Numbered from the stretch's first letter, positions 6,880-43,154 are shown. The stretch: 64,000 nt of DNA from Candidatus Curtissbacteria bacterium (GCA_024654445.1 JANLHP010000017.1:33009-97008), one strand, 5' to 3'. Made by a program: numbers and translations. The notes: generated by a model from the letters alone, not told the origin.

Positions 6880-8087
6880 ACTACCTTTTTATTTCTCAAG
6901 AGTTTGTAGGAATTAAGTTTCTCGCTAACTAAAGCACCAGATCCTATAAGAACTACAAATAGGGTAACAAGCCAGCCAATTACAGGTATCGTTGTAAGAA
7001 TTCCGTAAATTAACAGACCTGCAATAAGAGCTAAATAGTTATTTTCTTTTCCTTGTGCAAATCTAAGAATTATTCTCCCAACCGCGATCGCGACGAATAA
7101 TTTTGCGAGGTAGAGGACAAATATAAAGTCGACAAGTAAGGCTAGAGCAATTGGGATGCCTACGATTGTAATTGTCAAAACAACCACAGCTAAAGGTGTC
7201 ACGACTAGCGTCAAGAGTCCAACGCCAAGATTTTTCAGAGGTCTTTCGACTACGCTGTCCACAGTCCTTTCCGTAAAGTTCGGCAGGAATTTAATGAACA
7301 GGAGGCCGATTATAAGAGCTGCCAAAAAGCTAATTGCTTTGAAGATCAAGAAGGCGGCGCCTAGAGCTTTTTCTGCATCTTGCTGACTTTGCCTTTGAGG
7401 TACATTTTTAACGGTAGAGCCAGTGACTTGTGCTCCTTGTTGGATTTGCGCATCTTTTTCGCTCCAGTAATTTACATCGCCCTTAACTTGAGCTTTTGAT
7501 GTTAAGGTTAACTGTCCTACGCCTGCAGTAATGTTGCTGCCAACCGTATTTCCGATTGTTGCGTCGCCAGACGCTAAGGTTATTCCTTTGCCAACTGGGG
7601 CAAAAAGACTAAAGCTTCCTGAAGCATTAACCACGCTACCTCCGATGTTTGCTGAATCGGTAAAATTAACTGCTCCTGCAGTGGTTGTTACGTTTCCCCC
7701 AATGTCACCTGAAATTATTACTTCCCCGCCAGCCGCTCGGACGTCATTTTTAACATTACCCATGATGTTAACGGAGCCTCCTGCAACCAGAAGGTCGCCG
7801 TTTACTGTGCCTTCAACGATAACGTTTCCACCAGCGGCGTATACGTCCCCATTAACGGTGCCTGCAATGGTAACTTTTTCTCCTGTTGCAAAATAATCAC
7901 CTTCTATCGTTTCTCCTTGAGGTAAAAGCGCAACTTCTTGATGTACCATGTTTGGCGCGGCAAGAGCCGGAGTAACGAGCGTAAACAATGCGATTACTGT
8001 TAAAAATATGGCTGCTATTTTGTTTCTTGTCATCTTTGTCGTCTCTTTCTCGTTCAGAATAGTCCTTTGATTTTTACTTGTCAACAC
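6876..8087 (-). CDS. Bactofilin-like beta-helix repeat protein with signal peptide and C-terminal multi-TM domain
   Basis: Repeats TVNGDVYAAGGNVIVEGTVNGDLLVAGGSVNIMGNVKNDVRAAGGEVIISGDIGGNV (GxVxGDxxxxGGxV periodicity); C-terminal 6 TM helices; overlaps gtrA stop. Confidence 0.5.
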   Translation of the reverse strand: MLTSKNQRTILNEKETTKMTRNKIAAIFLTVIALFTLVTPALAAPNMVHQEVALLPQGETIEGDYFATGEKVTIAGTVNGDVYAAGGNVIVEGTVNGDLLVAGGSVNIMGNVKNDVRAAGGEVIISGDIGGNVTTTAGAVNFTDSANIGGSVVNASGSFSLFAPVGKGITLASGDATIGNTVGSNITAGVGQLTLTSKAQVKGDVNYWSEKDAQIQQGAQVTGSTVKNVPQRQSQQDAEKALGAAFLIFKAISFLAALIIGLLFIKFLPNFTERTVDSVVERPLKNLGVGLLTLVVTPLAVVVLTITIVGIPIALALLVDFIFVLYLAKLFVAIAVGRIILRFAQGKENNYLALIAGLLIYGILTTIPVIGWLVTLFVVLIGSGALVSEKLNSYKLLRNKKVV

Positions 8088-8631
8088 TATTATTTAGATA
8101 GGCTGCGACTTTTTTCAAAGCCTTTGAGCGGTGCGAAATTTTGTTTTTCAATTCCTGCGGCATTTCGGAATAAGTTTGTTTGTAACCATTTGGGATAAAT
8201 ATCCTGTCGAAACCGAATCCTCCCACGCCTCTGTCTTTTTTGGTGATCGTACCGCTCACTTGGCTTTTGAAGATCTTGAGGTTCTTGCCATCGTAAATCG
8301 CGATAGCCGCTGTCACAGTTGCTTCGGGTTTTTTACCGGTTGTGAGTTTAGCAACTCCTTCGGTTCCTAAAGTTTCAAGAAAAAATTTAATAAAAGGTCC
8401 AGGAAGACCTCTTAATTCTTTTATGTCAACGCTTACATCTTCTACAAGTACGGGTTTTTGGATTTTTTCAAATGCGGACTTCGCTTTTGCCGTAATTACC
8501 TTGTCAATATTCATTGACTGGATTTCGGGAATGTTGATTTTTGAAACTTTGTGATTCGTTCCCAAAATCGCGTTTATTTCGGCAATTTTGTTTCTATTGC
8601 TGGTAACAACTACCAAGTCAGAGAGATTCAT
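8074..8631 (-). CDS. rdgB: Non-canonical purine NTP pyrophosphatase (RdgB/HAM1 family, dITP/XTPase)
   Basis: VVVTSNRNKIAE (TGNxxKxxE), FGFDRIFIP, SHRSKAL motifs. Confidence 0.8.
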   Translation of the reverse strand: MNLSDLVVVTSNRNKIAEINAILGTNHKVSKINIPEIQSMNIDKVITAKAKSAFEKIQKPVLVEDVSVDIKELRGLPGPFIKFFLETLGTEGVAKLTTGKKPEATVTAAIAIYDGKNLKIFKSQVSGTITKKDRGVGGFGFDRIFIPNGYKQTYSEMPQELKNKISHRSKALKKVAAYLNNSVDK

Positions 8632-9127
8632 AATTTAGAAACACCTCCACAAGCACAAAACAAGGAGTGTCTTGCTCTTCTAATGCACGCTCTGAGTGTC
8701 CTTGAACACTTAGACTCTGGCAATTATTTTGAAAATCAAGGATTTCGGTGACTCTGGACGGTAGCCTAGAATGCATTAACCTAATTTCAAAGAAAGTTTA
8801 CAAAAACGGGGACCAATTTTCAAGAAGCCAAAAGGAACTAAATTACCTAAAGCCAAAACTCAATTTTATCTCCCGCAGGAAGCAGAACCAAACCTCGGAT
8901 GGGCATCGCTAGTCCAGTAGTAGGGCAACCCCGGCCGACCGTACCACAAGCGCAGAAACGGAGCGCCGCCAGACTCAACTTGTGTGCCAGGTAGATCAAC
9001 ATAATGTTCTTTTAGTATATCGGGGTTGGAAATATAAAGGGCAATTCCATCTAAAATTGTTGCTCCTCTTTCATCGTCTTCGAAATTGAACGCAGATTAT
9101 ATAGCTACTATGGGTTACTTGTCAAGC

Positions 9128-10648
9128 TCATTCGTATTCTATTGTTGCTGGTGGTTTTTGGGTGATGTCGTAAACAACGCGATTGACCCCTCGAACTTCG
9201 TTGACGATTCGGCTGGAGATTTTTTCCAGAACCTCATGTGGAATTTTGGACCAATCGGCGGTCATAAAGTCTGTGGTGTCTACAGATCTAAGGGATACGA
9301 TATAGGAATAAGTGCGGCTATCACCCATTACGCCTACAGACTTGACAGGTAGAAGGGCTGCCAGTGATTGTCCTACCTTATTATATATGTCATGGAATTT
9401 AAGCTCTGAAATGAATATTTCATCGACTTCTCGCAGTATCGAAAGTCTCTCTTCTGTCACCTCACCTAGGACTCTAATCGCGAGGCCTGGTCCTGGAAAT
9501 GGATGGCGGTTTGTAAAATCGCGGCTAATGCCAAGCAGATTGCCTATTTTTCTTACTTCGTCTTTATAGAGGTCGCGTAATGGTTCGATGAGCGTGAGCT
9601 TTAATCCTGAAGGCAGCGTAACGTTGTGATGGCTTTTGATTTTGTCCGCGTGTTTAGATGTCTGAGCAGATTCAATTCGGTCAGGGTAAATTGTTCCCTG
9701 ACCTAAAAACTTAACATTGCCGATTTTCTTGGCTTCTTCTTCTAATATTTTAAAGTAGAGCTTGGCGATAACTTTCCTTTTTTCTTCTGGGTCACTTACG
9801 CCTTTTAACCCTTTGATGAACCTGCTACTTACGTCTGTTATTTTGAAATTCTTAAAGCCTACGGTTTTAATAACGTTTTTAAGGTCGGAAACGTCATAAT
9901 TCCTGAGCAAGCCGGTATTTATAAAAACCATATGAAGATTTTTGGGTACTGCTTCTTTTATGAGTATCGCCGCGACAAGAGAGTCTACTCCACCTGAGAT
10001 TGCCATCAGAACTTTTTCGTCGCCGATTTGGTTTTTGAGATCGGATACGATTTGTTCTTTTACTTTTTTGATTGTCCAATCACGATTGGCACCAGAAACA
10101 CCAAAAAGAAAATTGCTTAGGATTTCCTTACCTTTTGTTGTGTGAGAAACTTCTGTGTGGAATTGAATTCCAAAGAAATTATGTTTGAGATTTTGTATTG
10201 CAGCAAATTTGGCGCTTTGAGTGGATCCTATTGCTGTGAATCCTTGAGGCAGTTTGCTCACCTGGTCTCCATGAGAGAACCAAACAGTTTGTGGGCTTTT
10301 TAGGTTTTTAAACAGTGGAGATTTTGAAATTTTTAACTCGACCTTACCAAATTGTTTTTTGGTGTGCGGAACTACTTTACCCCTCAGTTGATATGCCATT
10401 AGTTGCTGGCCATAACATATACCTAAAATCGGCAACTTGAGTTTGTAAATTTTAGGATCGATTTTTGGCGCTCCTTTTTCGTAACAAGAGTAAGGGCTAC
10501 CGGAAAGTATAATTGCTTCGGGATTTATTTTTTTTATTTCGGTAGGAGATATTTCCGGTGAAACGAGTTCACTTTTAACATCTAGGTCTCTTATTCTTCT
10601 TGCAATAAGGTGGGCAAATTGCCCACCAAAGTTAACAACAATTACCAT
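9128..10648 (-). CDS. guaA: GMP synthase (glutamine-hydrolysing)
   Basis: GATase ICYGQQLM Cys, ATP-PPase P-loop ISGGVDSLV, conserved C-terminal dimerisation domain ...PPATIEYE; TGA stop. Confidence 0.95.
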   Translation of the reverse strand: MVIVVNFGGQFAHLIARRIRDLDVKSELVSPEISPTEIKKINPEAIILSGSPYSCYEKGAPKIDPKIYKLKLPILGICYGQQLMAYQLRGKVVPHTKKQFGKVELKISKSPLFKNLKSPQTVWFSHGDQVSKLPQGFTAIGSTQSAKFAAIQNLKHNFFGIQFHTEVSHTTKGKEILSNFLFGVSGANRDWTIKKVKEQIVSDLKNQIGDEKVLMAISGGVDSLVAAILIKEAVPKNLHMVFINTGLLRNYDVSDLKNVIKTVGFKNFKITDVSSRFIKGLKGVSDPEEKRKVIAKLYFKILEEEAKKIGNVKFLGQGTIYPDRIESAQTSKHADKIKSHHNVTLPSGLKLTLIEPLRDLYKDEVRKIGNLLGISRDFTNRHPFPGPGLAIRVLGEVTEERLSILREVDEIFISELKFHDIYNKVGQSLAALLPVKSVGVMGDSRTYSYIVSLRSVDTTDFMTADWSKIPHEVLEKISSRIVNEVRGVNRVVYDITQKPPATIEYE

Positions 10649-10653
10649 AGTCT

Positions 10654-11625
10654 TTAGATCAGCTTACTGAGCGCATCAACAATCCGTTTCTGGGGATCTT
10701 CTGTCGTGTCTATTTCTAATTTTTCGCCTGTTAACTTTTCGTAAACTTCTATATATCGTTTTGCGATTTTTATAATGAGGTCTGGGGGCATTTGTGGGAT
10801 TTTACCGCGTCCTACAAATCCTTGCTGGCTAAACCAAATTCGCATAAATTCTTTATCGTAATTTTCAACCTCTTGTCCCTTTTTAAACCTTTCTTTGTAA
10901 GTTTCTTTGCGCCAATATCTGCTGCTGTCGGGTGTATGAATTTCGTCTATTAGTGTTAACTTTCCTCTTTTGTCGAGACCGAATTCGTATTTTGTATCCG
11001 CAAGGATAAATCCGGCATTACCAGCAATTTTGGTTCCCCTTTCAAATAATTTCAGGGCTACTTTTTCGATTTGTTTCCAAATTGCAGGAGAAATTATTTT
11101 TTGCTTGAAGATTTCTTGTTTTGTGATTGGTTCATCGTGGCCTCCTTTACCTGTTGCTCTGGTCGTCGGGGTAAGTACGGGTTTTGGTAGTTTTTGATTT
11201 TTAATAAGCTTGTCAGGAAATTTAATTCCGTAAATGATTCTTTTTCCTTCTGAGTATTGCTTCCAAAGAGATGTGTCTGTTACCCCAGTGATGTATCCTC
11301 TCACGACAATTTCAATGGGTAGTGCTTGAGCTTCTGAAACTAGCATGACGTTTGGATCGATCACTCCGATCATGTGGTTTGGAATTATGTCTCTCGTTTC
11401 TTCGAACCAAAACTCCGAGAGCTTATTTAATACTGCGCCTCTAAATGGCACCAACCCTAAAACTCTGTCGAAAGCGGAGATTCTGTCGGTTGCAATTAAG
11501 ATTCGCAAGCCATTTCTGGTGTACCAATCGCGGACCTTACCACTGTTTCTCTTGCCGAGTTGAGGTACCTTTACTGTGCTTACCTCGCGGCCTATGTTAT
11601 TTTTGATTATGCTATCTGAAGTCAT
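10654..11625 (-). CDS. purC: Phosphoribosylaminoimidazole-succinocarboxamide synthase (SAICAR synthetase, long form)
   Basis: [16 protein letters not shown] motifs; 323 aa. Confidence 0.85.
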
Positions 11626-12140
11626 TTTGCTAGCTGTAAATATTTTTTATATCCTGAGTTTTCTAACTTTTTAGCTTTCTCTCCTACTGTCTTTTTCATT
11701 TTGGCTTTGTATCGAGTTAGCTTACTACTTAAATTTTTATTGTTTGTTGCCAGAATTTCGATCGCAAGGAGGGCCGCATTTGTCGAGCCATTGATGGCAA
11801 CTGTTGCAACAGGAATGCCTGGGGGCATTTGAGCTATTGATAAAAAAGAGTCGATGCCATCCATTGTTTTCGTTTTGATAGGGACGCCGATTACTGGAAG
11901 AGTAGTAATGGAAGCTGTCATTCCCGGTAGGTGGGCCGCGCCGCCCGCGCCGGCTATTATTACTTTAATGCCCTTTGATTTTGCGCTTCTTGCGAACTTG
12001 TACATTCTGTCCGGGGTTCTGTGTGCGGAAACCACGGTCAGCTCATAGCCTACGCCAAAATCATCGAGCACAGTAGCTGACTCTTTCATTATTTCCAGAT
12101 CCGAATCGCTGCCCATGATTATCGCTATTTCTTTTTTCAT
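11622..12140 (-). CDS. purE: N5-carboxyaminoimidazole ribonucleotide mutase
   Basis: [30 protein letters not shown] motifs. Confidence 0.9.
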
Positions 12141-13285
12141 ATTGTAATTAGTTTTCTTGCTTTTTGTGCTTTTGCCAGTGCCTCTTTTACATTTTCTCCA
12201 AGCGCGGTTACATGCCCCATTTTGCGTTCTTTTTTAGTCTGGGCTTTGCCGTAAATATGGACAAATACGTTTTCCAGTTTTTGAGCAGATTCGATACCTT
12301 TGGGCACAGCAGGAGAATTTCTTGTGCCCAAGATGTTGACCATGACGGCCGCGGGACTTGTCATTTTAATCGATTTTAAGGGTAATTTACAAACAGCTCT
12401 TACGTGGTGTTCAAACTGTGACGCGTTAGTTGCTTCTATGGTGTAGTGGCCGCTGTTGTGAACGCGGGGAGCAATTTCGTTAACAAGAACTTTGTTATTT
12501 TTTGTCAGGAACATCTCTATCGCGAAGACTCCATTGCCCTTCAACATTTTTGCCACTTTTCCGGTTATTATATTTGCCTGTTTTTTGACCGTGTCGGTCA
12601 CGCGAGCGGGGGCAATTACGATATGGCAGATGTCGTTTTTCTGAATTGTTTCCACAAGAGGATATATTTTGGTTGTTTTGCCGCTTTTGACGACTTGAAT
12701 TGCAAGTTCACTTTTAAAAGGGACTAGCTTTTCGACATAAAGGTCGCGAGTACCTAATTTTAAGAGAGCCTTTTTAATGTCTGACTCTTTGGCAAGCCTC
12801 GCGTTGCCCCGTCCGTCAAATCCGTGATGGCGCGCTTTTATAACGAGAGGAAAGCCGAACTTTTTCGCTGCGCGTTTTATATCATCTATTGTTTCGACAG
12901 ATAAAAAGTCTGGTACGGGTACATTGGCCTTTTTTAAGATTTGTTTTTGGAGATATTTATCTTGGATTATTTTAAGAGTTTTGGGTGAAGGGTGAATTGA
13001 TTTGCCGGCACCTTTAAGTTCCACGAGAGATTGGGCATGCGCCGACTCAATTTCGTATGTTAAAAAATCAACGAGACTTGCAAGTTTTTTAATCATCTTT
13101 GGGTCTTTGTAATTACCCACAACTTGTTTATCTGCAATTTGCCCGGCAGGGCTTTGGGGGGTGGGGTCCAAAACGACAGTTTTTATGTTTAGATTTTGGG
13201 CGGCTTGGACCAACATTCTGCCCAGTTGGCCTCCGCCGATTATCCCTAAGCTGCTTTTTTTATTTTTTGAAGTAATATTTCGCAT
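12137..13285 (-). CDS. purK: N5-carboxyaminoimidazole ribonucleotide synthase (ATP-grasp)
   Basis: [13 protein letters not shown]-terminus, ATP-grasp core; 4-nt overlap with purE. Confidence 0.85.
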
Positions 13286-14634
13286 TTTTCTTTTGCAAGT
13301 CCTATGTGGGTTTTATAATCAGAAAGTTTATCTATATCTTTGCTATTTAAATACTTTGTAATCTTCTCGTCTTTTTTTAAATTTTCAAAAAGGGGATTTG
13401 TTCCAAGCCGGTTATTGAACTCATAAGCGACAAGGGCGTGTTCGCGTAAAACTTCATGCATTTCTTGTCTGTCGGCGCCTCTTTTTGTCGATTCTAGTAA
13501 AATGAGCTCAATCGCGGCAAAGGGGCCGAAATTCTCCAAGTTTTTTTCAATATTTTTTTGGTTAATGACCAGGCCGCTTACAATTGATTTGGTTGATAAT
13601 AGAATTTCATTTGTTGCGAGAAATGCGTCAGGTAGAACTATTCTCCTGGATGCGGAATCGTCAAGGGTCCGCTCCAGTAGTGAATTTGCTGCATTGTCCC
13701 AGGAGACTTTCGTAAGAGATGCAACATATCTTGCGAGTGAACAAATTTTTTCTGCAGTTATTGGGTTTCTTTTAAATGGCATTGCGGAAGACCCTACCTG
13801 CTTCTTCCCGAATGGTTCCATCCACTCTCCAAATCCTGCGGATTGCATGATTCTTAAATCAAAAGCGAATTTGCTTGCGCTCTGCGCGATGGATGACAGC
13901 AAGCTTAAAATTAGAAAATCCAATTTTCTCGGGTATACTTGTCCGGTGACGTCAAACGCTTCAATTCCGAGTTCTGACATCACATCTTCCTCGAAATTTT
14001 TTGCCTTACTTCCAAGTAATGCTACATATGACGCATAAGTTCCAACTGCTCCTTTTGTTCCTTTGCCTTTAACGTTTTCTTTAACAAAGTTAAGTAGTTG
14101 TAGGTCGATTAAAAGGTCCTGAGCATAAAGTGTGAACCTGTAACCCAATGTTGTTGGCTCGGCTGGCTGCAGATGCGTGTAGGCCATACATACCAGCTCT
14201 TTATATTCGCTTATTTTTTTGGAAAATTCGGCAAGAGCTTGTTTTAATTCTGTTTCGATTATTTCCAAAGCAGAAAGTAGAATAATTGCATCTGCGTTGT
14301 CTTCTATGTCCTGCGATGTGGCGCCAAGATGGATTTTACCTCCACCAATTTTTGATTGAGCCGCGAATGTTTTAAGCTCGGCCATTAGATCATGTTTAAT
14401 TTCTGCTTCTATTTCGTGAGCTTTTTCTATGTCGATTTTTTGTGAATTGTCTCTTATATCCAAAAATTCTGCTTTTGTAAGAAGACCTGCTTTATGCTGA
14501 ACTCTGGCGATCGCCGTCCATACTTTGCGCCACGTTTTTCTTCTATTTATTTCGGAGAAAAGTTGCCGCATTTGGTCGCTGCCATAACGCCAGGAAAATG
14601 CGGATTGATATGTGTTGAAATTAATTTCTGTCAT
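13246..14634 (-). CDS. purB: Adenylosuccinate lyase
   Basis: Fumarate-lyase signature GSSAMPFKRNP; 462 aa; TAG stop followed after one codon by TAA. Confidence 0.9.
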   Translation of the reverse strand: MTEINFNTYQSAFSWRYGSDQMRQLFSEINRRKTWRKVWTAIARVQHKAGLLTKAEFLDIRDNSQKIDIEKAHEIEAEIKHDLMAELKTFAAQSKIGGGKIHLGATSQDIEDNADAIILLSALEIIETELKQALAEFSKKISEYKELVCMAYTHLQPAEPTTLGYRFTLYAQDLLIDLQLLNFVKENVKGKGTKGAVGTYASYVALLGSKAKNFEEDVMSELGIEAFDVTGQVYPRKLDFLILSLLSSIAQSASKFAFDLRIMQSAGFGEWMEPFGKKQVGSSAMPFKRNPITAEKICSLARYVASLTKVSWDNAANSLLERTLDDSASRRIVLPDAFLATNEILLSTKSIVSGLVINQKNIEKNLENFGPFAAIELILLESTKRGADRQEMHEVLREHALVAYEFNNRLGTNPLFENLKKDEKITKYLNSKDIDKLSDYKTHIGLAKEKCEILLQKIKKAA

Positions 14635-14646
14635 ATTTTTGATCTC

Positions 14647-14736
14647 GTCATTCTGGAGACCGAAGGTCGATAGAATCTAAACGATTGAGATCCTATTCGT
14701 AGAAAAGCTCTGCTTATCGGTCGTTTCACTCCCTCC
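14647..14736. repeat. Palindromic intergenic repeat family R2, copy A (GTCATTCTGGAG...CGATAGAATCTA...CTCCAGGATGAC)
   Basis: Terminal inverted repeats gtcattctggag / ctccaggatgac; shared core with copies at 17146, 24477, 51897, 56146. Confidence 0.8.
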
Positions 14737-14748
14737 AGGATGACAGTT

Positions 14749-15864
14749 TTACGTTGTCACCTTCTTGAGTTTCCCGCTTCTGATTGCTGTTTTTATTTCC
14801 ATCGCTACGCGCCTCCCCATACTTATGCTTTGACCAAATAAATATCCACTGTAAGGAGTCGCGAAGATTCCGGGAGAACCTGGCATCCTAGGGGAAACGT
14901 CGAAAACAACTATTTCCTTTTTGGGTGGCCCTGGAGTAATGACGGATTGCAAACTGAACGGCCCAATGACCCCTGGGGGGTACATATTTTTTGCAGCCGC
15001 AACAAATTTTTCCCCGGCTTCAAATGCCCCTTCCAGCATTGATTCGAGAGTGGTAACTGCGATGTGTCCCGCTTCTTCGTATTTGATGTCGAAAAACTGT
15101 TGATCGTTAATGGATAATTGTTCGCTGGCCGGAAGTTTAAGAAACCCTTCAAGATTTGTTTGGCGTCTGGTGTCAGTTCCGATCAACTCAAGTCGATTTA
15201 AAATAGGGGAGTAGAAAAAATTAAAATTCACTTGAACGCCCAGAACGAATTCTTCAATCGTTGCAGCGTCTAAATCTTTTTTAGTTATTTTTCCTTCTTT
15301 AATTAATATCCTGGCTCTTTGCTGATATGAAGTGGGGGAGTTAGCTAAAAAGAAGGCTCTCTCGAAGCCTCTTTGCTTTTCGGGAACTTTAACAATTACT
15401 AATCTGTCGATCTCTTGCGGATTTTGATAGATCTTGGGAAAGCGAATAACAGCAGTTTTTAAAATGTCATATTGATTTCTTTCTTCTGTTCGCTCTTCGG
15501 CGCGGAGTAAAAACCTATTTCCAAATATTGGGATTTTAAAATCCTTCTCGATTGCGTCATAATCACCGATGTAAACCTCGAATGAGCGGTGGGGGATAAA
15601 AATTGCATTTTTGGCCTTTAGAATTTTCTGGAATCGGGGGTCTAAAATATCTTTAAACTTGTCGACATATAAAACTTCGTCCACACAGCCCGTAGGTCCT
15701 GAGCTTGCCGAAGGGCTTCTGCTAGTTGTCTTAAAGTACTTTGCGTAAGTCTTGTCTCTCCCCTCCTCTACTATTACAATAGTTGCCAACCCTTCGTCTT
15801 TAGCTCCTCGGCAGACGTCTAAAGCGCTATGGCTTCCTATGACTGCTACCGCTACCCTAGCCAT
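14749..15864 (-). CDS. PurP-like ATP-grasp protein (archaeal-type 5-formaminoimidazole-4-carboxamide ribonucleotide synthetase paralog, divergent)
   Basis: N-terminus VAVIGSHSALDV; IPHRSFEVYIG, FFYSP, SMGRRVAMEIK - same family as the ORF at 17216 but more divergent. Confidence 0.6.
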   Translation of the reverse strand: MARVAVAVIGSHSALDVCRGAKDEGLATIVIVEEGRDKTYAKYFKTTSRSPSASSGPTGCVDEVLYVDKFKDILDPRFQKILKAKNAIFIPHRSFEVYIGDYDAIEKDFKIPIFGNRFLLRAEERTEERNQYDILKTAVIRFPKIYQNPQEIDRLVIVKVPEKQRGFERAFFLANSPTSYQQRARILIKEGKITKKDLDAATIEEFVLGVQVNFNFFYSPILNRLELIGTDTRRQTNLEGFLKLPASEQLSINDQQFFDIKYEEAGHIAVTTLESMLEGAFEAGEKFVAAAKNMYPPGVIGPFSLQSVITPGPPKKEIVVFDVSPRMPGSPGIFATPYSGYLFGQSISMGRRVAMEIKTAIRSGKLKKVTT

Positions 15865-17137
15865 AGATTACCTCGTTTCTTGCGGGTCCGACACCGATAA
15901 AATCAACCGGCACACCCACAAATTCTTCAATCTTCTGGATATATTTTTTGGCGTTTTTGGGAAGGTCGGCAAATTTCCTGACTTTGGTGATGTCTTCTTG
16001 CCATCCCGGCAGAGTTTGATAAACCGGTTTACATTTTTCAAGTTTGTCCGCGTCGCCCGGAATGTATCCTACTTTTTTACCGTTTAGCAAGTAGCCTATG
16101 CAAATTTTAATTTCGTCAAATTCGGTTAAGATATCTAATTTTGTTACGGCAAGATGTTTTATGTTATTTACTTCACAAGCTGCTTTTAATAGGACGAGGT
16201 CCAGCCATCCAGGGTCTCTGACGCGGCCCGACGTTGTTCCCACTTCCCCACCCTTTTCTATAATTATTTTTCTTTCTTTGCCCTTTATTATTGTCGGCAT
16301 TGGGCCCGCGCCTACTCTTGTCGTATAGGCTTTTGTTATACCAATTGGGTGGTTAATAACAGAAGGGTTTAAATCGAACGACCGTAGAATCCCAACTAGC
16401 CCCGGGTTGGAAGAAGTAACGTACGGGTACGTACCCGCGTCGATATCAAGAAAATATCCTTGGGCGCCTTCGAATAGAACGTTTTGCTTGTTTTTAATCG
16501 CTTCATTTAATATTTCGTTGGTATCAGCAACATAAGGCTTAATGATTTTTGCGTAGTCGGTAAATTTTTGGTGAATTTCGCGGTAAGAAAGTTTTAGGTT
16601 GAAAAACTTATTTTGAACCGTGAGTTCTTCTTTTAATTTTTTAGCAAAATCGGCACTTACCAAGTCTTTAACCCGAAGACCAACTCTTTCGGTTCTGTCG
16701 GCGTATGCTGGGCCCACTCCCCTTTTCAGCGTTCCTAATTTGGAACTTCTCATTTGTTCTCGAAGCGCGTCGCGGAGCTTATGCCACGGCATAACTAAAG
16801 TTGCCCTATGATCGATTCTTAAATTTTTCCAAGAAACGCCAGCAGCTCTAAGTTGCTCCAATTCGTCGTCGATAAGCGATTCCAAATCGACCAAGACGTT
16901 TTTGCCAACTAAACATTTTGTTTTTGGGTTAAATATTCCGGAGGGCATTATATGAAGAGCAAAAGTGCCAAATTCGTTTTTGATCGTATGGCCTGTATTT
17001 GATCCGCCGTTAAATCTGGCAACAACGGCTGCCCTTTGTCCTAAATCGTCAATAAGCCGTCCTTTACCCGAGTCTCCCCAATCGACTCCGATTACGGCAG
17101 CAACACCTGACCAGTTTTTTAAATTATTACTTTTCAC
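15857..17137 (-). CDS. purA: Adenylosuccinate synthetase
   Basis: GVDWGDSGKGRLID P-loop, GGSNTGHTI, conserved C-terminus. Confidence 0.95.
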   Translation of the reverse strand: MKSNNLKNWSGVAAVIGVDWGDSGKGRLIDDLGQRAAVVARFNGGSNTGHTIKNEFGTFALHIMPSGIFNPKTKCLVGKNVLVDLESLIDDELEQLRAAGVSWKNLRIDHRATLVMPWHKLRDALREQMRSSKLGTLKRGVGPAYADRTERVGLRVKDLVSADFAKKLKEELTVQNKFFNLKLSYREIHQKFTDYAKIIKPYVADTNEILNEAIKNKQNVLFEGAQGYFLDIDAGTYPYVTSSNPGLVGILRSFDLNPSVINHPIGITKAYTTRVGAGPMPTIIKGKERKIIIEKGGEVGTTSGRVRDPGWLDLVLLKAACEVNNIKHLAVTKLDILTEFDEIKICIGYLLNGKKVGYIPGDADKLEKCKPVYQTLPGWQEDITKVRKFADLPKNAKKYIQKIEEFVGVPVDFIGVGPARNEVIYG

Positions 17138-17145
17138 TAAATTTT

Positions 17146-17208
17146 GTCATTCTGGAGACTGAAGGTCGATAGAATCTATTTGACCCTATCGCTTCGCTCC
17201 AGGGTGAC
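17146..17208. repeat. R2 palindromic repeat, copy B
   Basis: gtcattctggagactgaaggtcgatagaatcta...cgctccagggtgacgg. Confidence 0.8.
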
Positions 17209-17215
17209 GGTAATA

Positions 17216-18229
17216 TTAATCTAAAATTTTGTTTAACTTTTTTGTTCTAATCGCGTCTTTTATTTCCATTGCGATTCTTCTGCCTGTTGAAACGGGTTTA
17301 TCCCAGTAAAGGGCAGCGTATGGTGAACCATTTATAAATAAGTTAGTTCCAGCAACTATTCGGCAGGAGATTTCTATTATAGAAAATTTTTGCTCCGGAG
17401 TGATAATCGTCTCAAGACAAAATGGGCCCCATATTCCCTTTTTCATTAATTTTTGCGAAGTTGCCACAACTCTTTCCCCCATTTCGAACGCTTCTGCAAG
17501 AAGCGACTCTCGCAGAGTTAACGGTGAGTTTCCAACGACGACGAACGACGGTTCTATTCCAAGACCTGTTTGGTTTTGGACTGGGATTCGCCCTAGAGAG
17601 TCTACGTTAGACTCGTATCTTTTGTCTATTGATAAAATCTCGAGTTCTTTTGATATTGGGGAATAAAAATAATGAATATAAAGAGGAACGCCGATGACGT
17701 ACTCTTGGACGATAAACCTTTGTGGTTTAAACCCTTTTAGACGCCTTAGTAACTCTTTTTCGTTTTTTGCAAAAAAGTACCCTTCGCCTCCCGCTGCCCC
17801 AAAAGCTTTAACAATTACCGGGCTGTCTATCTTGTCTCCTTTTTTATAACGCTTTGGGACTGGAATGTCTGATTGTATTAGCCACTCTCTTTGCATTTTG
17901 CGGTCTGATTCCCAGTCTAAAACTTCTTTATTGCCAAAATAAGGAACTTTCATTTTTTTGTTTTCGTCTATACCCAGATAAGCGACAAAAGATCCGTGAG
18001 GAATTATGATGCAGTTTTCTTTTATTAAAGTTTTTTCTACTTGTGGAAATTCCGCGTATGTGGGGATTTCTATTATCTTGTCGATGAAGTTAAAGCGTTT
18101 GTAGAGGTCTAGTCTGTTTGAGGTCGCGACCAGAACTGTTTTGAATTTTTCGTCGTGTGCGCCTTTTAAAATTTGGAGAGCAGAGTGGGAACCGAGAGTT
18201 GCTATTTTGTAGGATTTTCGTCCCGCCAT
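17216..18229 (-). CDS. purP: 5-formaminoimidazole-4-carboxamide-1-beta-D-ribofuranosyl 5'-monophosphate synthetase (archaeal-type, formate/ATP-dependent)
   Basis: Near-collinear to recalled archaeal PurP: IATLGSHSALQILKGA, YKRF, IPHGSFVAY, VPYFGN, LDWESDR, IHYFYSP, DKRYESN, GPFCLE, GRRIAMEIK. Confidence 0.8.
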   Translation of the reverse strand: MAGRKSYKIATLGSHSALQILKGAHDEKFKTVLVATSNRLDLYKRFNFIDKIIEIPTYAEFPQVEKTLIKENCIIIPHGSFVAYLGIDENKKMKVPYFGNKEVLDWESDRKMQREWLIQSDIPVPKRYKKGDKIDSPVIVKAFGAAGGEGYFFAKNEKELLRRLKGFKPQRFIVQEYVIGVPLYIHYFYSPISKELEILSIDKRYESNVDSLGRIPVQNQTGLGIEPSFVVVGNSPLTLRESLLAEAFEMGERVVATSQKLMKKGIWGPFCLETIITPEQKFSIIEISCRIVAGTNLFINGSPYAALYWDKPVSTGRRIAMEIKDAIRTKKLNKILD

Positions 18230-18253
18230 CTTTGTATTCTACAGACTCTGAGG

Positions 18254-19735
18254 CTAAATTGCAAAAAAGGCGGCGGCTAGAACAAGGAGGATATAAAGCA
18301 GAGACCAGGGGATAATTTTTTTAATGATGTGCCTTTCCTTTCCTTTTAAGTCGACTGCTGTTTGGGCGGCAATAATGTTTGGGATTGAAATCATATTTCC
18401 TGCTGTTGCGCCTAGAAGCTGCAATGAAAGGATAATGGAAATATTTATACCTGCTTGTTCTGCGGCATGAGCTTGTGCAGGGCCGAAAAGTAAGTTTGAG
18501 ACCGTTGCGCTTCCCGCGATAAATGCGCCGAATGCTCCTATAAATGGCGACAAAAGCGGCAGTAGGGGTGTCTCTAAGTTTTTAAAGGCTTGGGTCGCTA
18601 GCTGGCTGTTGACCATTACTTGCATTAGCCCCACAACTAAAAAAATTATTGTTGCAATATAGGGTATTTTGACGAAAGCTTCTTTTGCGCCTTTAAAGAC
18701 GTCTCTTAAAGTTAAGCTTGATACAGCAATAATGACGACTGCCGATATCAAAAATATAGTTCCGGGATTAAAAAGGACAAAAGTATGAGAAATGTTCTCG
18801 TTAATTTCTGCCGTTAACCTCAGGGGTATAAGTTTCGCAATTATCAAGAGTGAAACAAGTAAAGCGTAAGGCATTAAAGCTTTAGTCGGCGAAATCCTCA
18901 CTTTGGGTTCTGATGGATCTTTAATTTTGAAGTCATTATTGAATTTAAACAGTCCTAATTTTAGGGCTAAAAGAACAACCGCCGTTCCGATGGTGGCTCC
19001 CGCAATTGATGGAAATTCCAACCCCAGATATAAACCAAAATAATAAGGAATAACAAAACAGAGTCCTGAAAATATGGCAAAGGGCGAAGCTTTTATAAAA
19101 AATTGCCACACTGGTTTCTTTAATGCATAAGTAAGAATTGCCAGTACCATAAGAGGCACAAAAACTCCAACTATTGCTCCTAACTCAACAGTGTTTTGGG
19201 CTATTTCTTGCATATTAAAATTATGAAAACCTATTTTAATTGGAGTTCCTACCGCACCGAAAGTAACAGGTGCGCTGTTTGCAACTAGTGCGATAACCAC
19301 TGCCCAAATCGGTTTTATTCCTGTTCTTAATAAAAGATACGCAACGATTAGTGCCGGGATTCCAAAGCCGGCTGTGCTTTCCAGAAACGCTCCAAAAAAC
19401 CACGCCAATAAAATTGTTTGTACTCGGATGTCTGGTGATATTTTATGCAGGTATGTTTCGAGGGAAGAAATTACGTCCGCTTTTTGCATTAAATATAAAA
19501 AGGTGAGAGCACCGAAAACAATTAACACAATGTCGAGCGAGACAAAAGCGCCTTTTAAGAGGCTTGAAAGAATAACTTGATAGGACGTATGTAGATAAAA
19601 CGTGCTTAAGATTATGGCAGCAAACAAACTTATGAGTGCTGATATTTTTAGCTTGTTTTTGAAGAGTAAAAGGCCACCTACAAGTATTAATATCGGCAGA
19701 AGCGACAAAAAAGTTTGCACAAAATATTTTAACAA
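18254..19735 (-). CDS. L-lactate permease family (LctP) transporter
   Basis: WFFGAFLESTAGFGIPALIVAYLL...ANSAPVTFGAVGTPI and C-terminal LLFGPAQAHAAEQAGI...GNMISIPNIIAA align to the E. coli LldP conserved blocks. Confidence 0.75.
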   Translation of the reverse strand: MLKYFVQTFLSLLPILILVGGLLLFKNKLKISALISLFAAIILSTFYLHTSYQVILSSLLKGAFVSLDIVLIVFGALTFLYLMQKADVISSLETYLHKISPDIRVQTILLAWFFGAFLESTAGFGIPALIVAYLLLRTGIKPIWAVVIALVANSAPVTFGAVGTPIKIGFHNFNMQEIAQNTVELGAIVGVFVPLMVLAILTYALKKPVWQFFIKASPFAIFSGLCFVIPYYFGLYLGLEFPSIAGATIGTAVVLLALKLGLFKFNNDFKIKDPSEPKVRISPTKALMPYALLVSLLIIAKLIPLRLTAEINENISHTFVLFNPGTIFLISAVVIIAVSSLTLRDVFKGAKEAFVKIPYIATIIFLVVGLMQVMVNSQLATQAFKNLETPLLPLLSPFIGAFGAFIAGSATVSNLLFGPAQAHAAEQAGINISIILSLQLLGATAGNMISIPNIIAAQTAVDLKGKERHIIKKIIPWSLLYILLVLAAAFFAI

Positions 19736-19825
19736 ATAATTATTACGAAGTTAACCGAGGGTTGCGATTTTGTAACTTTTTCGTCCCGCCGCCCGAAATT
19801 AAACTTGCAAGTCTTAATCTTTCGC

Positions 19826-20944
19826 TCATCTTAAATCTAGTGATTCGGATTTGAATGTAAGATTTTTGGGCAGAATTTGGACTTCGCGCGGGCCCTTTTT
19901 GACATAGCCTGCATTGTAAATTTTTAACTTTTGAGACTTTGCTGCAGTTTCTACTTTATTCAAATCTTTTGGATTTATAAAAATACCGAAGCCTGCTCCC
20001 ATATTAAAATTTCCATACATATCTTTCTCGCTTATTTGACCTTGCTCTTGCATGAACGTGAATTCTTCCTGAGGAGTTGGGATCATTTCGATTACATATG
20101 ATAATTTTTTTGGATGGCGCATAATTTTTCGCCAACCGTGTCCGGTAATGTTGACCATGTAATGAATGTCTACTTTTTGATCGAACAATTCGTCGATAAA
20201 TTTAGCATATATAATCGTTGGTCTTCTTAGGGCTTCGCCAAACATTTTGCCGCTTGGCATAGGTGTTGCTAGACCTTGAGGTAATTTTTTCGCAATTCTT
20301 CTTGCGAGCGTTAAACCGTTGGCGTGAATGCCTGACGATTCCAACAGGATTATTAAATCCCCAGCTCCTAATTTTTCCCCAAGCACAAGTCTTGATTTTG
20401 GTCTGATTACGCCAGTGGCAGCACCTGCAAGTTCGATTGTGTTTTTGTGAACGATATTGGTTAAGGTGGGCGTCTCTCCCCCGCCCCAGGTTGCCCCAGC
20501 CAGATTACAAGCACGCTTCCATCCTAAGAGCAATTCTCGGACTCTTTTTTTATCACTGAACCAGGAAGAATGACCCACCGCAAAATATGCATTAATGACT
20601 TCGGGCTTTGCGCCAACGGTAATTAAATCGTTTACTATCATTGCTACTGTGTCCTGCGAAATTACACTGTAGTAACTCTTACCGGTAATTTTGATCATCT
20701 CATCTTCTACAATATTTTTAGTACCGAGTCCTTCTATAACAAATGCGCGGTAATGATCGCCGCAATCGTAGACATAGGATGATTCTCCTCTTGATTCGGG
20801 TACTTCTTTTTCTTTTAGTCTCAGGAGGTTTTTGGCAGTAGATTTTGCCAGTTTTTGCGCACTCTTTTTGACAGGATCCATTGCTCTATAAGAGACTCCT
20901 GATTTTTCGTAGATGTCTCGCGGTGTCATATTTGTTTTTGCCAT
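19826..20944 (-). CDS. purM: Phosphoribosylformylglycinamidine cyclo-ligase (AIR synthetase), with ~60-aa divergent N-terminal extension
   Basis: EGLGTK, DTVAMIVNDLITVGAKP, GGETPTL, LIILLESSGIHANGLTLARR, ITGHGW, MYGNFNMGAGF collinear with E. coli PurM blocks; TGA stop. Confidence 0.75.
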   Translation of the reverse strand: MAKTNMTPRDIYEKSGVSYRAMDPVKKSAQKLAKSTAKNLLRLKEKEVPESRGESSYVYDCGDHYRAFVIEGLGTKNIVEDEMIKITGKSYYSVISQDTVAMIVNDLITVGAKPEVINAYFAVGHSSWFSDKKRVRELLLGWKRACNLAGATWGGGETPTLTNIVHKNTIELAGAATGVIRPKSRLVLGEKLGAGDLIILLESSGIHANGLTLARRIAKKLPQGLATPMPSGKMFGEALRRPTIIYAKFIDELFDQKVDIHYMVNITGHGWRKIMRHPKKLSYVIEMIPTPQEEFTFMQEQGQISEKDMYGNFNMGAGFGIFINPKDLNKVETAAKSQKLKIYNAGYVKKGPREVQILPKNLTFKSESLDLR

Positions 20945-21030
20945 GATTGTCCGAAATTGCCAAGACTTTTTGATGCGAGTTTATTGGCAAATTCTGCTGA
21001 CCATTTTAACGATTTGTCTTTTAAAATCCC

Positions 21031-21861
21031 CTATAGAAATCCCGCGGCAAACGTATCCCCTGCCCCCGTTGTATCTACGATATTGTTCACTTTATGTCTG
21101 CCCGTTAAGAACTGCTTTTTGTTTGTGGTAATTAAAGCGCCTTTTTTGGAAAGAGTGCAAACTACAATTTTTGGACCAAATTTAAGTAAATAATTGCTTC
21201 CTGCTCTTGGAGGTTTTCCGGTTAATTTTTTAAGTTCATGCTCATTTAAGAAAATAATATCGCTCTTTTTAATAATGGGTTTAATTTTAGTTTTAGCTCT
21301 TTGAATATAAAAGCCGCTAGGATTAAAACTAATCATTGGGCCTTTTACGCTTTCTAAAAAATCTAGGGTTTTATTAATACCTTTTTCTACATCGACAACA
21401 AGTGGCGTAATGTGAACAATCTTTGCTTTGTTGATAAAGTTGTAATCTAAACTTGAAAAAAAGTCTCTTTCGTGTTTATTTTCTTCTGACAAGAATGTTC
21501 TTTGTTTGCCTACTCTTGTTAGGATACAAGGGCACATCGGTGTTTTGCCGGCTCGTAAGATTTTTGTTTTTTCTAGATTGATATTTTTTATCCAATAATC
21601 GCCGTCTTCATCTTTGCCAATTACTCCAAGATATGCGCTTTTAGTTTTTAACGTGTATAGCGCTGATAGTGTATTTGGCGCAATTCCCCCAGGACTTTTG
21701 GTTGTGGGTTTAAGATGTTTTAAGATCTCTTCCCTGGTTATTTTCTTTTCGGAGAAAAGGAAATCGTCTTCGGGGTTTAAGTTGATGCTTTTTAAAAAGT
21801 CGTTATTTGTTTCGAAAAAATAATCGGTGTAGGCAGATCCGATTCCAACTATGTCTGCCAT
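21031..21861 (-). CDS. PfkB-family carbohydrate/nucleoside kinase (ribokinase/adenosine kinase-like); ORF ends at in-frame TAG 21031-21033 immediately after DTTGAGDTFAAGFL; homologous C-terminal helix continues in frame to 20926
   Basis: Gly-rich N-terminus, anion-hole motif DTTGAGD; readthrough frame encodes GILKDKSLKWSAEFANKLASKSLGNFGQS matching the conserved PfkB C-terminus (..EAIRFAxAAAAxxVxxxGAQ). Confidence 0.7.
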   Translation of the reverse strand: MADIVGIGSAYTDYFFETNNDFLKSINLNPEDDFLFSEKKITREEILKHLKPTTKSPGGIAPNTLSALYTLKTKSAYLGVIGKDEDGDYWIKNINLEKTKILRAGKTPMCPCILTRVGKQRTFLSEENKHERDFFSSLDYNFINKAKIVHITPLVVDVEKGINKTLDFLESVKGPMISFNPSGFYIQRAKTKIKPIIKKSDIIFLNEHELKKLTGKPPRAGSNYLLKFGPKIVVCTLSKKGALITTNKKQFLTGRHKVNNIVDTTGAGDTFAAGFL

Positions 21862-21882
21862 ATTTTTTTGGGGGCAGGAGAA

Positions 21883-22254
21883 CTAATCACTACTATTAGT
21901 TGTGAAAGCATATGCTATGACATTTGAGTGGCTAACTCTTACCATTAAGTCTGGGTTGTCTCTATGATGAATAACGACCATTTCCTCTCCTGTTACTACT
22001 ACTCTGTCGGGCTCAACATATTCCCAATTTGCAAAAGTTTTGTCGGGCGATTTAACAACAACAAGATGATCAAAGTAGCCACCAAAAAGTATGCCGACTT
22101 TGCGGTCTATTTGGTTACAAATAACTGTGATTTCTGCAGGGGAAAATATGTCTAGTACTTTTATCTCGCCTCTGTTCAAAGTGAAATCTCTTTCAGCTCT
22201 GTTTTGACCGATGAGTCTGTCTACTTCTACAGGGGCCATATTAATTTTTAACAA
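21883..22254 (-). CDS. Hypothetical protein (123 aa)
   Basis: Intact ORF, co-directional, tight spacing; no recognisable motif. Confidence 0.4.
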   Translation of the reverse strand: MLKINMAPVEVDRLIGQNRAERDFTLNRGEIKVLDIFSPAEITVICNQIDRKVGILFGGYFDHLVVVKSPDKTFANWEYVEPDRVVVTGEEMVVIHHRDNPDLMVRVSHSNVIAYAFTTNSSD

Positions 22255-22284
22255 AAGGTAGACTTATCTGTCAATAGAGGGAAA

Positions 22285-22485
22285 CTACTTTTCGTCTTTA
22301 AGGTAGAGGCCGAGGACGCCGAGGACCCCCGCGACGAGGAAGAGCTGAGTTGGCGCAAGAGACGTGAAATCGTTTTGGGTTACCGCTTCATACGCCGCCA
22401 CCATTATGACAACAACTGTTGCCGCGATTAAAAATTGCGACAGCGGATTATTTTTAGACCTCTTTGGAAGTAGCTTTTTTGCCAT
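22285..22485 (-). CDS. Small single-pass/2-TM membrane protein (66 aa)
   Basis: Basic N-terminus then hydrophobic helices; weak. Confidence 0.3.
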   Translation of the reverse strand: MAKKLLPKRSKNNPLSQFLIAATVVVIMVAAYEAVTQNDFTSLAPTQLFLVAGVLGVLGLYLKDEK

Positions 22486-22561: not shown

Positions 22562-23062
22562 GACTTTTGGGAAGAAGGGCGATTAGGTTTGGAAGAGGGG
22601 CAAGCCCCCCTTCCAGCTTTCCCCCACTCGGGGACGGCTGGTCGATAATTTTTTATAATTCCAGATCAGGAAAGTCCGGACAGCAGGAATCAAGGAACGG
22701 ATTTTTGATCCGACGCGTAAGCGCTAGTTTCTTGAGTACCGAAAGGGAAAAAGGACGGGTCCTGAATTGACAGGATTCGAGAGCCACAGTGACGAAAAGA
22801 TCCTAAGTCGTAAGATATGGATTGAAAGTGAAACGGTCTCCTTCGTTCTGCTTTTGCAGAACTTCGGCGGACTAAAGGCAATCCTTCTTGCTGCAACTCA
22901 GAATTGAGCCGCAATTACCATGATTCCGGGAGGCTCTAAGTAGAGGCATTCTGCATAAAGCAGAACGGAGTGACATTTACATCACTTCGAGACAGATGAT
23001 CGCACAAACCCCACGTCGCTAAAGCTATGAGGGGTGAAACAGAATCCGGCTTACTCTCTTCC
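22562..23062 (+). ncRNA. rnpB: RNase P RNA (bacterial type A), ~500 nt with insertions
   Basis: P4 5' strand AGGAAAGUCCGGAC at 22667-22680 and P4 3' strand ACAGAAUCCGGCUUA at 23038-23053; P1/P2 pairing CUUUUGGGAAGAAG (22564-77) with CUCUUCCCAAAAG (23049-61); overlapping ORFs 22567..22770(+) and 22690..22914(-) are spurious. Confidence 0.8.
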
Positions 23063-23068
23063 CAAAAG

Positions 23069-42702: not shown

Positions 42703-43154
42703 CTTTCAAGACTTTTAAGCGCTTCCAAAGTTGCGTAAACGTTGGAAGCTTGATTTTTAGTTCCAAGAACTTTACTTGAAATATTCCTAATTCCAGCTGC
42801 TTCTACTACGCTTCTTACTGCGCCGCCTGCAATTACACCCGAACCTTCGGGAGCGGGTTTAAGGATGATTTTTGCGGCTCCTCTTTTAATATAAACATCG
42901 TGAGGAATCGTTCCGTTTACCAAAGGCACCTCTATTAAATGCTTTTTGGCGTAAGCGATTCCTTTTCTTATTCCAGAAGATACGTCTTTTGCTTTTCCAA
43001 GACCCACACCTACTCTGCCTTTTTTATCGCCTATTACCATCAAAACGGAAAAGCCTATTTTGTTTCCGCCCTGAGTTTTTTTGGATACCCTGTTGACTTG
43101 AATGACTTTTTCGTCGAATTCTTTAGGTTGGTCTTGATAATATGGATTTGCCAT
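42699..43154 (-). CDS. rpsE: 30S ribosomal protein S5
   Basis: dsRBD plus S5 C-domain. Confidence 0.95.
   Translation of the reverse strand: MANPYYQDQPKEFDEKVIQVNRVSKKTQGGNKIGFSVLMVIGDKKGRVGVGLGKAKDVSSGIRKGIAYAKKHLIEVPLVNGTIPHDVYIKRGAAKIILKPAPEGSGVIAGGAVRSVVEAAGIRNISSKVLGTKNQASNVYATLEALKSLER

Follow-up and report, generated by a model that had tools for sequence, protein, structure and literature searches.

A block of eleven genes, all on the minus strand, occupies positions 9128–21861 of a 64,000-nucleotide stretch of DNA (the window) from Candidatus Curtissbacteria bacterium, a member of the Microgenomatia within the candidate phyla radiation (CPR). The block is the standard purine operon of Microgenomatia with an archaeal-type pair of PurP proteins, and it has three peculiarities: a permease gene of the LctP family, an interrupted gene for a PfkB-family kinase, and the absence of the early-pathway genes from their conserved position. 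In all probability it is a native purine-nucleotide operon that has been inherited vertically in Curtissbacteria.

Conservation of the purine block

Gene identities were taken from the open reading frame (ORF) listing together with Pfam and NCBIfam profile searches. Loci for comparison were collected by scanning one genome per GTDB species with PurP-B, one of the two PurP proteins of the window. This gave 69 loci, CPR and archaeal ones among them. The window proteins were mapped onto them, followed by the early-pathway proteins that had been identified in the loci. Fifteen loci of the Curtissbacteria type contain enough sequence for comparison. They are L001–L012, which are records labelled Curtissbacteria or mislabelled, and three further contigs, L073, L074 and L078. 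Levyibacteria- and Gottesmanbacteria-type loci were placed beside them; L013–L016 come from other Microgenomates, and L013 and L014 are of the Levyibacteria type.

The gene order purPB-purA-purPA-purB-(purK)-purE-purC-guaA, followed by ham1 where the locus reaches that far, is the same in all 15 Curtissbacteria-type loci. The proteins of the block are 55–82% identical between the window and its relatives, a range equal to that found among the relatives themselves, and GuaA is 67–74% identical to its syntenic orthologues. Upstream, the relatives have in common the landmarks orf547, miaA, an AI-2E transporter gene, the RNase P RNA gene (rnpB) and an ORF of 66 aa, and conservation extends to the flanks miaA-AI-2E-rnpB and ham1-orf403. 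The wider set of Microgenomatia and CPR purine clusters (L001–L016 and L073–L078) resembles the window in the order purM-(slot)-purPB-purA-purPA-purB-(purK)-purE-purC-guaA-ham1, in orientation and in the upstream landmarks. The window differs from these clusters in that purSL-purQ and purN-purD are missing beside purM, LctP fills the slot, and an amber codon interrupts PfkB. As far as the loci found through PurP show, the cluster is essentially universal in the lineage, an outcome that the preliminary description of this DNA had itself named as refuting its view of the block.

The composition of the block matches the rest of the window and gives no foreign signal. Its GC content is 0.411, against 0.409 for the other window genes, and GC at third codon positions (GC3) is 0.385, against 0.360 ± 0.036. 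The codon-usage distance is 0.143, against 0.150 ± 0.041, and all three measures are within one standard deviation of the other window genes.

A preliminary description of this DNA had placed it in the CPR on account of its ribosomal locus, and this placement is borne out. The closest database matches of the window proteins are labelled Curtissbacteria, Levyibacteria and "Patescibacteria group", the closest relatives being Candidatus Curtissbacteria. Proteins 100% identical to PurP-B, LctP and PurM (MCR4324533-35) carry the NCBI label "Candidatus Curtissbacteria bacterium". The genes for ribosomal proteins S5 (42699–43154) and L15 (42178–42702) overlap by 4 nt and leave no room for an L30 gene, whose absence there is a hallmark of the CPR. 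At 174 aa L15 is long, with a Pfam domain that begins only at residue 77, which fits the extended ribosomal protein tails mentioned in the preliminary description. Purine synthesis has been reported in this part of the tree before: Microgenomatia are able to synthesise inosine monophosphate (IMP) from phosphoribosyl pyrophosphate (PRPP) (PMC9166423), and nucleotide synthesis in Peribacteria is essentially complete (PMC4736985).

The other Microgenomates (L013–L016) have the whole de novo pathway gathered in one cluster, and in the Levyibacteria- and Gottesmanbacteria-type loci purF, purN, purD, purSL, purQ and purH lie within the purine cluster. L013 and L014 encode a PurF-PurN fusion, a PurD-PurS-PurL fusion, PurQ, PurP-B, PurH, PurP-A, PurB, PurK, PurE and PurC. 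PurM is also present in L013, and the sequence of L014 stops at purC. L015 contains purF, purN, purD, purSL and purQ, and L016 contains purF, glyA, purN and purD. Several of the fusions are unusual for purine enzymes: PurF-PurN of 699 aa (L013 2768–4867; L014 361–2457), the triple fusion PurD-PurS-PurL of about 1,406–1,420 aa (L013 4946–9166; L014 2463–6713), and a PurN-PurD fusion of about 635 aa in L001 and L074.

The profile searches identified the eleven genes as the preliminary description had done, in one co-directional block at 9128–21861, and all of them are intact except PfkB. Most overlap or lie less than 115 nt apart, and with such tight packing they are probably co-transcribed. The features of the region are listed below.

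8074–8631, minus strand: Ham1/RdgB pyrophosphatase for non-canonical purine nucleoside triphosphates, inosine and xanthosine triphosphate (ITP/XTP) (PF01725, 146 bits; NF011396, 160 bits)
9128–10648, minus strand: guaA, glutamine-hydrolysing guanosine monophosphate (GMP) synthase (NF000848, 691 bits, cut-off 400)
10654–11625, minus strand: purC, phosphoribosylaminoimidazole-succinocarboxamide (SAICAR) synthetase (NF009251, 404 bits, cut-off 371)
11622–12140, minus strand: purE, class I mutase of N5-carboxyaminoimidazole ribonucleotide (N5-CAIR) (TIGR01162, 219 bits, cut-off 150)
12137–13285, minus strand: purK, N5-CAIR synthetase (TIGR01161, 411 bits, cut-off 318)
13246–14634, minus strand: purB, adenylosuccinate lyase (TIGR00928, 407 bits, cut-off 326)
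14749–15864, minus strand: gene for PurP-A, predicted cluster II / PurP III type (DUF1246 and DUF1297)
15857–17137, minus strand: purA, adenylosuccinate synthetase (NF002223, 483 bits, cut-off 402)
17216–18229, minus strand: gene for PurP-B, predicted cluster Ib / PurP II type, PF1517-like (top PDB match 2R84)
18254–19735, minus strand: LctP-family permease (PF02652, 277 bits)
19826–20944, minus strand: purM, 5-aminoimidazole ribonucleotide (AIR) synthetase (AIRS and AIRS_C)
20927–21861, minus strand: PfkB-family kinase with an in-frame TAG at 21031–21033 (PF00294, 102 bits for the ORF 21031–21861)
21862–22284: junction, the site of purN, purD, purSL and purQ in relatives, holding only an orphan ORF of 123 aa (21883–22254)
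22285–22485, minus strand: ORF for a putative small membrane protein of 66 aa, conserved, at the upstream edge of the syntenic region
22628–23069, plus strand: RNase P RNA, divergent bacterial class A (RF00010)

The Ham1/RdgB gene lies outside 9128–21861 and is the conserved last member of the block. It directly follows guaA in L003, L004, L005, L006, L008 and L073, and is one ORF further away in L011; in most relatives the two genes are immediate or near neighbours. In the window they are separated by 0.5 kb of non-coding DNA (8632–9127). This spacer contains a perfect match to TTGACA-18-TATAAT at 9125–9096 on the minus strand. It has no credible Rfam match and no conservation, and its predicted folding is no more stable than that of shuffled sequence (z = +1.0). 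In the scan for terminator-like sites 17 were found, with 16.4 expected by chance, and the terminator and promoter scans are uninformative on operon structure.

Some variation occurs inside the conserved order. Orthologues of purK are present in L004, L006, L013–L015 and L074, and in L003 and L008–L012 purB is next to purE with no gene in between. The purB position in L001, L002, L005, L007 and L012 is taken by a distant lyase that is 26–29% identical to the window PurB, and the lyase found there in L078 (15400–16812) has the C-terminal domain ASL_C instead of ADSL_C. The distant lyase looks like a gene displacement within a conserved operon, and purK likewise occurs only in some members.

On the upstream side, the RNase P RNA matches RF00010 over its full length (1–367) with 45 bits and an E-value of 2e-11. 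Because this score falls well short of the gathering score of 100, the RNA escaped the default Rfam scan. Its segment, located after the AI-2E transporter gene and ahead of the purine region, shows conservation in L008, L010, L011, L073 and L074. The DNA of the 66-aa ORF is conserved with L001, L003, L074, L076 and L078, and the gene calls for L074 and L078 include one of 66–68 aa at that position.

The region upstream of purM

All 15 purM-containing relatives have purSL, which encodes a PurS-PurL fusion, and purQ either directly upstream of purM or no more than about 2.2 kb away, and purN and purD often accompany them. Direct adjacency is broken only in L073, where purQ and purSL are inverted and lie about 2.2 kb upstream of purM, beyond the genes for a haloacid dehalogenase (HAD)-like protein and PfkB. 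The window is the sole exception among 16 purM-containing loci, with no purSL-purQ beside purM. Its upstream landmarks end at 22285 and the PfkB gene starts at 21861, leaving 0.4 kb whose sole content is the orphan ORF, for which tblastn finds no homologue in any locus. Synteny with L073 by blastn breaks between the rnpB segment and the start of PfkB. A search of the 0.9-kb region at the junction gave no remnant of the early genes even at E = 10. A single deletion of about 5.8 kb from an L073-like ancestor would give the arrangement seen in the window.

The position of the early genes varies in the lineage. In Curtissbacteria loci purF is never found within 10 kb, purN and purD are absent from the clusters of L008 and L010, the purSL-purQ-purN block is inverted in L073, and in L005 the 4.3 kb upstream of purPB contain no purM. 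Because of this variable placement a relocation is plausible, and the early genes more likely lie elsewhere in this genome, outside the window, than have been lost.

The ORF of the PfkB kinase stops at the in-frame TAG, and the conserved frame runs on to 20927, where it overlaps the start of purM. The TAG replaces the tyrosine of a GFLYG motif, which is still a tyrosine in the L073 orthologue, and the next 34 codons are conserved, so that the stop lies 35 codons before the normal end. TAG reassignment or readthrough was considered as a genome-wide explanation and ruled out, because TAG is the ordinary stop of 9 of the 47 window genes. The TAG in PfkB is therefore not recoding; it is either a recent nonsense mutation, which would make the gene a fresh pseudogene, or a polymorphism of the strain, or else an error of sequencing or of the consensus.

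The kinase recurs at the purine cluster of three relatives, L073, L074 and L012. In L073 an intact orthologue of 314 aa with 70% identity directly precedes purM. A homologue with 53% identity precedes purSL in L074, and another lies next to purSL in L012. In both L073 and L074 the PfkB gene follows a gene for a HAD-like protein of about 410 aa. The kinase is thus part of a recurrent accessory module in the lineage, made up of the HAD-like protein and the kinase.

As for its type, the preliminary description had called PfkB a kinase of nucleosides or of aminoimidazole riboside (AIRs). The resemblance to nucleoside kinases is upheld. By sequence, the top structure matches are the adenosine-kinase-like sugar kinase 4E3A (64 bits), 3UBO, a fructokinase and MJ0406. 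The Salmonella AIRs kinase 1TYY is a weak, partial match of 26 bits over 77 residues, ranked about 52nd, which together with the premature stop speaks against the riboside assignment. The top NCBIfam matches are ribose-1-phosphate kinase and ribokinase, the best at 65–77 bits against cut-offs of 330–500. With 4E3A, 3UBO, MJ0406 (2C49) and archaeal ribose-1-phosphate kinases the window protein shares the PfkB fold and the anion-hole motif DTTGAGD. It differs from characterised PfkB kinases in that it reaches no equivalog cut-off, matches the AIRs kinase STM4066 (1TYY) weakly, and is truncated by the TAG. Probably the enzyme is a kinase of nucleosides or of ribose(-phosphate) that would feed salvage or the supply of PRPP.

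The neighbouring PurM scores 198 bits against TIGR00878, below the cut-off of 236. This is a lineage trait and not a sign of decay, because the PurM proteins of the relatives, at 182–187 bits, are also below the cut-off. The window PurM is 49–53% identical to the common PurM of Curtissbacteria, which is 65–81% identical among the relatives. Decay was considered as the cause of this outlying value and ruled out: a second type of PurM, represented by P0242–P0255 and by L074, L076 and L078, is 65–73% identical to the window protein and occurs in full clusters, and all CPR PurM proteins score below TIGR00878. Judged by these identities, the window PurM belongs to a second PurM type that is found in a minority of Curtissbacteria and, in the others that carry it, stands within complete clusters. 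The two types coexist in Curtissbacteria (L001–L012 and L073 on one side, L074, L076 and L078 on the other), with about 50% identity between types and 65–81% within them. Their distribution is not in step with the similarity of PurP-B, a sign that the left end of the cluster may have been replaced or have recombined.

A missing early half next to a broken kinase could also mean that the pathway is truncated or decaying. The early steps would have been lost and PfkB only just inactivated, leaving either a snapshot of genome reduction or a shunt that starts from scavenged 5-aminoimidazole-4-carboxamide (AICA) riboside or its ribonucleotide (AICAR), as was proposed for Korarchaeum (PMC3261824). 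The absence of purSL-purQ from 1 of 16 purM-containing loci, the clean 0.4-kb orphan junction without remnants and the fresh nonsense mutation in the adjacent gene favour this explanation, and there is a precedent in Korarchaeum cryptofilum, which has only two purP-like genes and the enzymes from IMP to adenosine monophosphate (AMP) and GMP (PMC3261824). Against it, none of the nine late genes is shortened, not even purM, which would serve no purpose in the absence of formylglycinamidine ribonucleotide (FGAM), and the identity of the late genes to their orthologues is as high as among the relatives. The early genes are already scattered in related genomes, the 64 kb seen here come from a contig of at least 268 kb, and the kinase that a riboside-salvage shunt requires is the very gene that is broken. 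We regard loss of the early steps as a real but somewhat unlikely explanation. A more specific form of it, in which the early half (purN, purD, purSL, purQ) was deleted and the kinase knocked out with the nine late genes left intact, so that the organism is abandoning de novo synthesis or uses a shortened pathway through the PurP Ib and II pair, seems to us a little more doubtful again. In the shortened pathway the PurP pair would also have to supply the IMP cyclohydrolase, as has been speculated for Crenarchaeota.

The LctP permease

The permease is matched across the protein by PF02652 (Lactate_perm), its 277 bits comparing with a gathering score of 27. It is below the TIGR00795 subfamily cut-off (262 versus 341 bits) and far below the equivalog cut-offs for LldP (124 versus 918) and GlcA (106 versus 1121), and there is a weak match to DctM, the C4-dicarboxylate permease. 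Like Escherichia coli LldP and GlcA (Transporter Classification 2.A.14) it has the Lactate_perm domain and a similar length (488–493 aa). It differs from them in its sub-cut-off scores and in belonging to a subgroup rich in CPR and DPANN members, for which the substrate is a prediction from the family. Characterised members of the LctP family transport lactate or glycolate.

The composition of the gene looks native, and its location is variable. It occupies the slot between purM and purPB, an interval that in relatives measures 0.3–4.4 kb and carries unrelated genes, namely a MgsA ATPase, type I restriction fragments, PD-(D/E)XK nucleases, an acetyltransferase, AHSA1 and a glycosylase. LctP is present in none of the 27 other CPR purine loci. 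Its nearest homologues are 55–59% identical, the closest at 59%, and they lie in non-purine neighbourhoods. Most likely, LctP is an accessory gene that landed in a recombination-prone slot and serves ordinary monocarboxylate transport of the lactate/glycolate type in a fermentative cell, and not purine chemistry.

The preliminary description had linked the permease to PurP chemistry, and this link does not stand, given the 27 loci without it, the variable slot and the non-purine context of the homologues. A tie to the operon would consist in import of formate for PurP, or in export or exchange of a carboxylate by-product such as fumarate, which PurB releases twice. The gene is co-directional with purPB and lies 24 nt upstream of it with no convincing terminator between them, homologues of 55–57% identity in other organisms adjoin a gene for dihydroorotate dehydrogenase (DHODH), an enzyme that also belongs to nucleotide synthesis, and the weak DctM match also speaks for a tie. 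A purine association in 1 of 28 CPR purine loci, the unrelated cargo of the slot in relatives, the lactate and glycolate carried by characterised family members, and a neighbouring DHODH that is of the quinone type and not the fumarate type all argue the other way, and we consider such a tie improbable. Fumarate export through LctP, an idea prompted by the DHODH neighbour, is weakened by the type of this enzyme.

The DHODH neighbourhood is found in another lineage of Patescibacteria (L070 6180–8914, L071, L079 and L080), where the LctP homologues always lie about 175 nt upstream of the quinone-type DHODH gene. This enzyme is odd in that place, as the host organisms are not expected to have quinones. 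The other LctP homologues that could be placed sit among unrelated genes.

The PurP pair and the role of the operon

The PurP proteins were typed with the diagnostics of Brown et al. (PMC3261824), in which the residue at position 258 (MJ0136 numbering) and the length of a loop distinguish the clusters; H27 and R314 were examined as well. PurP-B has Asn258 and a loop of 11 residues, the length of cluster I, with H27 and R314 conserved, and its top PDB match is PF1517 of Pyrococcus furiosus (2R84) with 362 bits. By these features it is assigned to cluster Ib / PurP II, the PF1517 type. PurP-A has His258 and a loop of 13 residues, PEKQRGFERAFFL, which is two residues longer than the P-loop of cluster I, as is typical of cluster II, where the loop is also poor in glycine; H27 and R314 are again conserved. 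It is assigned in the same way to cluster II / PurP III, the PF0421 type, and its biochemical function is a prediction. The correlation between residue 258 and loop length is perfect over 110 CPR and archaeal sequences.

The presumed activity of PurP-B is that of a formate-dependent FAICAR synthetase (EC 6.3.4.23), FAICAR standing for the ribonucleotide of 5-formamidoimidazole-4-carboxamide. This activity has been demonstrated only for MJ0136 of cluster Ia, and PF1517 and PF0421 were reported to be inactive (PMC3261824). Methanocaldococcus jannaschii MJ0136 (PDB 2R7K) has the ATP-grasp fold family and the DUF1246/DUF1297 domains in common with both window proteins, as well as the conserved formate-contacting residues H27 and R314. 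The match to MJ0136 is 304 bits for PurP-B and 242 bits for PurP-A. MJ0136 differs in that it belongs to cluster Ia and is a single copy alongside PurO, whereas neither window paralogue falls in cluster Ia.

The closer parallel is the archaeal Ib and II pair, PF1517 and PF0421 of P. furiosus. There, as in the window, one paralogue of each type is found in a purine gene context, one with Asn258 and an 11-residue loop and the other with His258 and a 13-residue loop, both with H27 and R314. In Sulfolobales, Pyrobaculum and Korarchaeum one gene adjoins the other (PMC3261824, PMC6486802). Crenarchaeota and Pyrococci also resemble the window in having no purH or purO nearby, although PurO had no query of its own in the window. 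The window differs from the archaeal pair in its bacterial host, in the purA gene between the paralogues and in the replacement of basic P-loop residues. In CPR and archaeal loci alike, the two genes are neighbours or close to it; in CPR Microgenomates and Peregrinibacteria they stand side by side or have one gene, purA or purH, between them. In Levyibacteria-type and Peregrinibacteria loci purH is found beside the pair, and in Curtissbacteria loci it is always absent within 10 kb. In a rough neighbour-joining tree, made without bootstrap, the CPR proteins are nested inside archaeal diversity in both clades, which fits an old transfer of the pair. A survey of 1,403 complete genomes in 2019 found PurP in Archaea only (PMC6486802), and our literature search gave no paper that pairs purP with Patescibacteria and none on Curtissbacteria and purine.

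The archaeal character of the pair, with its nested position in that tree and its reported restriction to Archaea (PMC6486802), is also what favours the metabolic island of the preliminary description, that is, a block acquired horizontally by an otherwise reduced CPR genome; this is very improbable indeed, because the late block has the same gene order in all 15 Curtissbacteria-type loci, its composition cannot be told apart from that of the ribosomal and housekeeping genes of the window, the capacity to make IMP is already published for Microgenomatia (PMC9166423), and any such transfer would be ancient and common to Microgenomates and Peregrinibacteria.

Several observations weigh against the reading of the block as a native operon for purine synthesis. 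Its universality was judged on loci found through PurP, and Curtissbacteria without PurP lie outside the sample. The late pathway, which the preliminary description had called complete-looking, is represented by all the genes that it listed, but its completeness was overstated: in the 64 kb tblastn finds neither a gene of the PurH type, the bifunctional AICAR transformylase/IMP cyclohydrolase, nor guaB, and PurO had no query of its own. The early genes that it had suggested looking for (purF, purD, purL and purN) are likewise absent from the 64 kb. With six early-pathway protein sets as queries, tblastn detects no purN, purD, purSL, purQ, purF or purH in the 64-kb window, and with purSL-purQ standing by purM in 15 of 15 relatives, a complete pathway in this genome is unproven. 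The P-loop of PurP-B is GAAGGEG, where the consensus is (K/R)GG(K/R)G, so the basic residues are absent. All 15 Curtissbacteria orthologues share the form (A/S)GGxG within GA(A/S)GGxG, with alanine or serine in place of the first basic residue and a non-basic residue at x. Finally, LctP is probably co-transcribed with the operon because of its position 24 nt upstream of purPB, and this leaves some room for a functional tie. As an observation apart, some other CPR PurP-B proteins and archaeal proteins retain at least one basic residue in the P-loop.

As a native operon, the block would work as follows. PurM would make AIR, which PurK, PurE, PurC and PurB would convert to AICAR. The archaeal-type PurP pair of clusters Ib and II would then presumably carry out the formate- and ATP-dependent formylation of AICAR. 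PurA and PurB would lead from IMP to AMP, GuaA would convert xanthosine monophosphate (XMP) to GMP, and the Ham1 ITP/XTP pyrophosphatase would clean the purine nucleotide pool. LctP would be an accessory permease inserted between purM and purPB, and PfkB a recurrent accessory kinase, truncated here by a mutation from tyrosine to amber. The early genes purN, purD, purSL and purQ, missing from their conserved site, would have been relocated or lost.

Purine clusters of this kind are usual in the class and the ability to synthesise purines has been published before, so the framing as an island carries little weight. What sets the window apart from its 15 relatives is the absence of the early genes from the conserved site, together with a nonsense mutation that has newly struck the kinase gene next to it. 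Should the full assembly show that the early genes are indeed lost, the genome would be a clean natural example of a CPR lineage giving up its nucleotide autonomy step by step. The occurrence of the PurP pair in CPR Microgenomates and Peregrinibacteria adds many bacterial genomes to the question of the PurP paralogues, and the speculation that one paralogue supplies the IMP cyclohydrolase where PurH and PurO are lacking now has bacterial cases.

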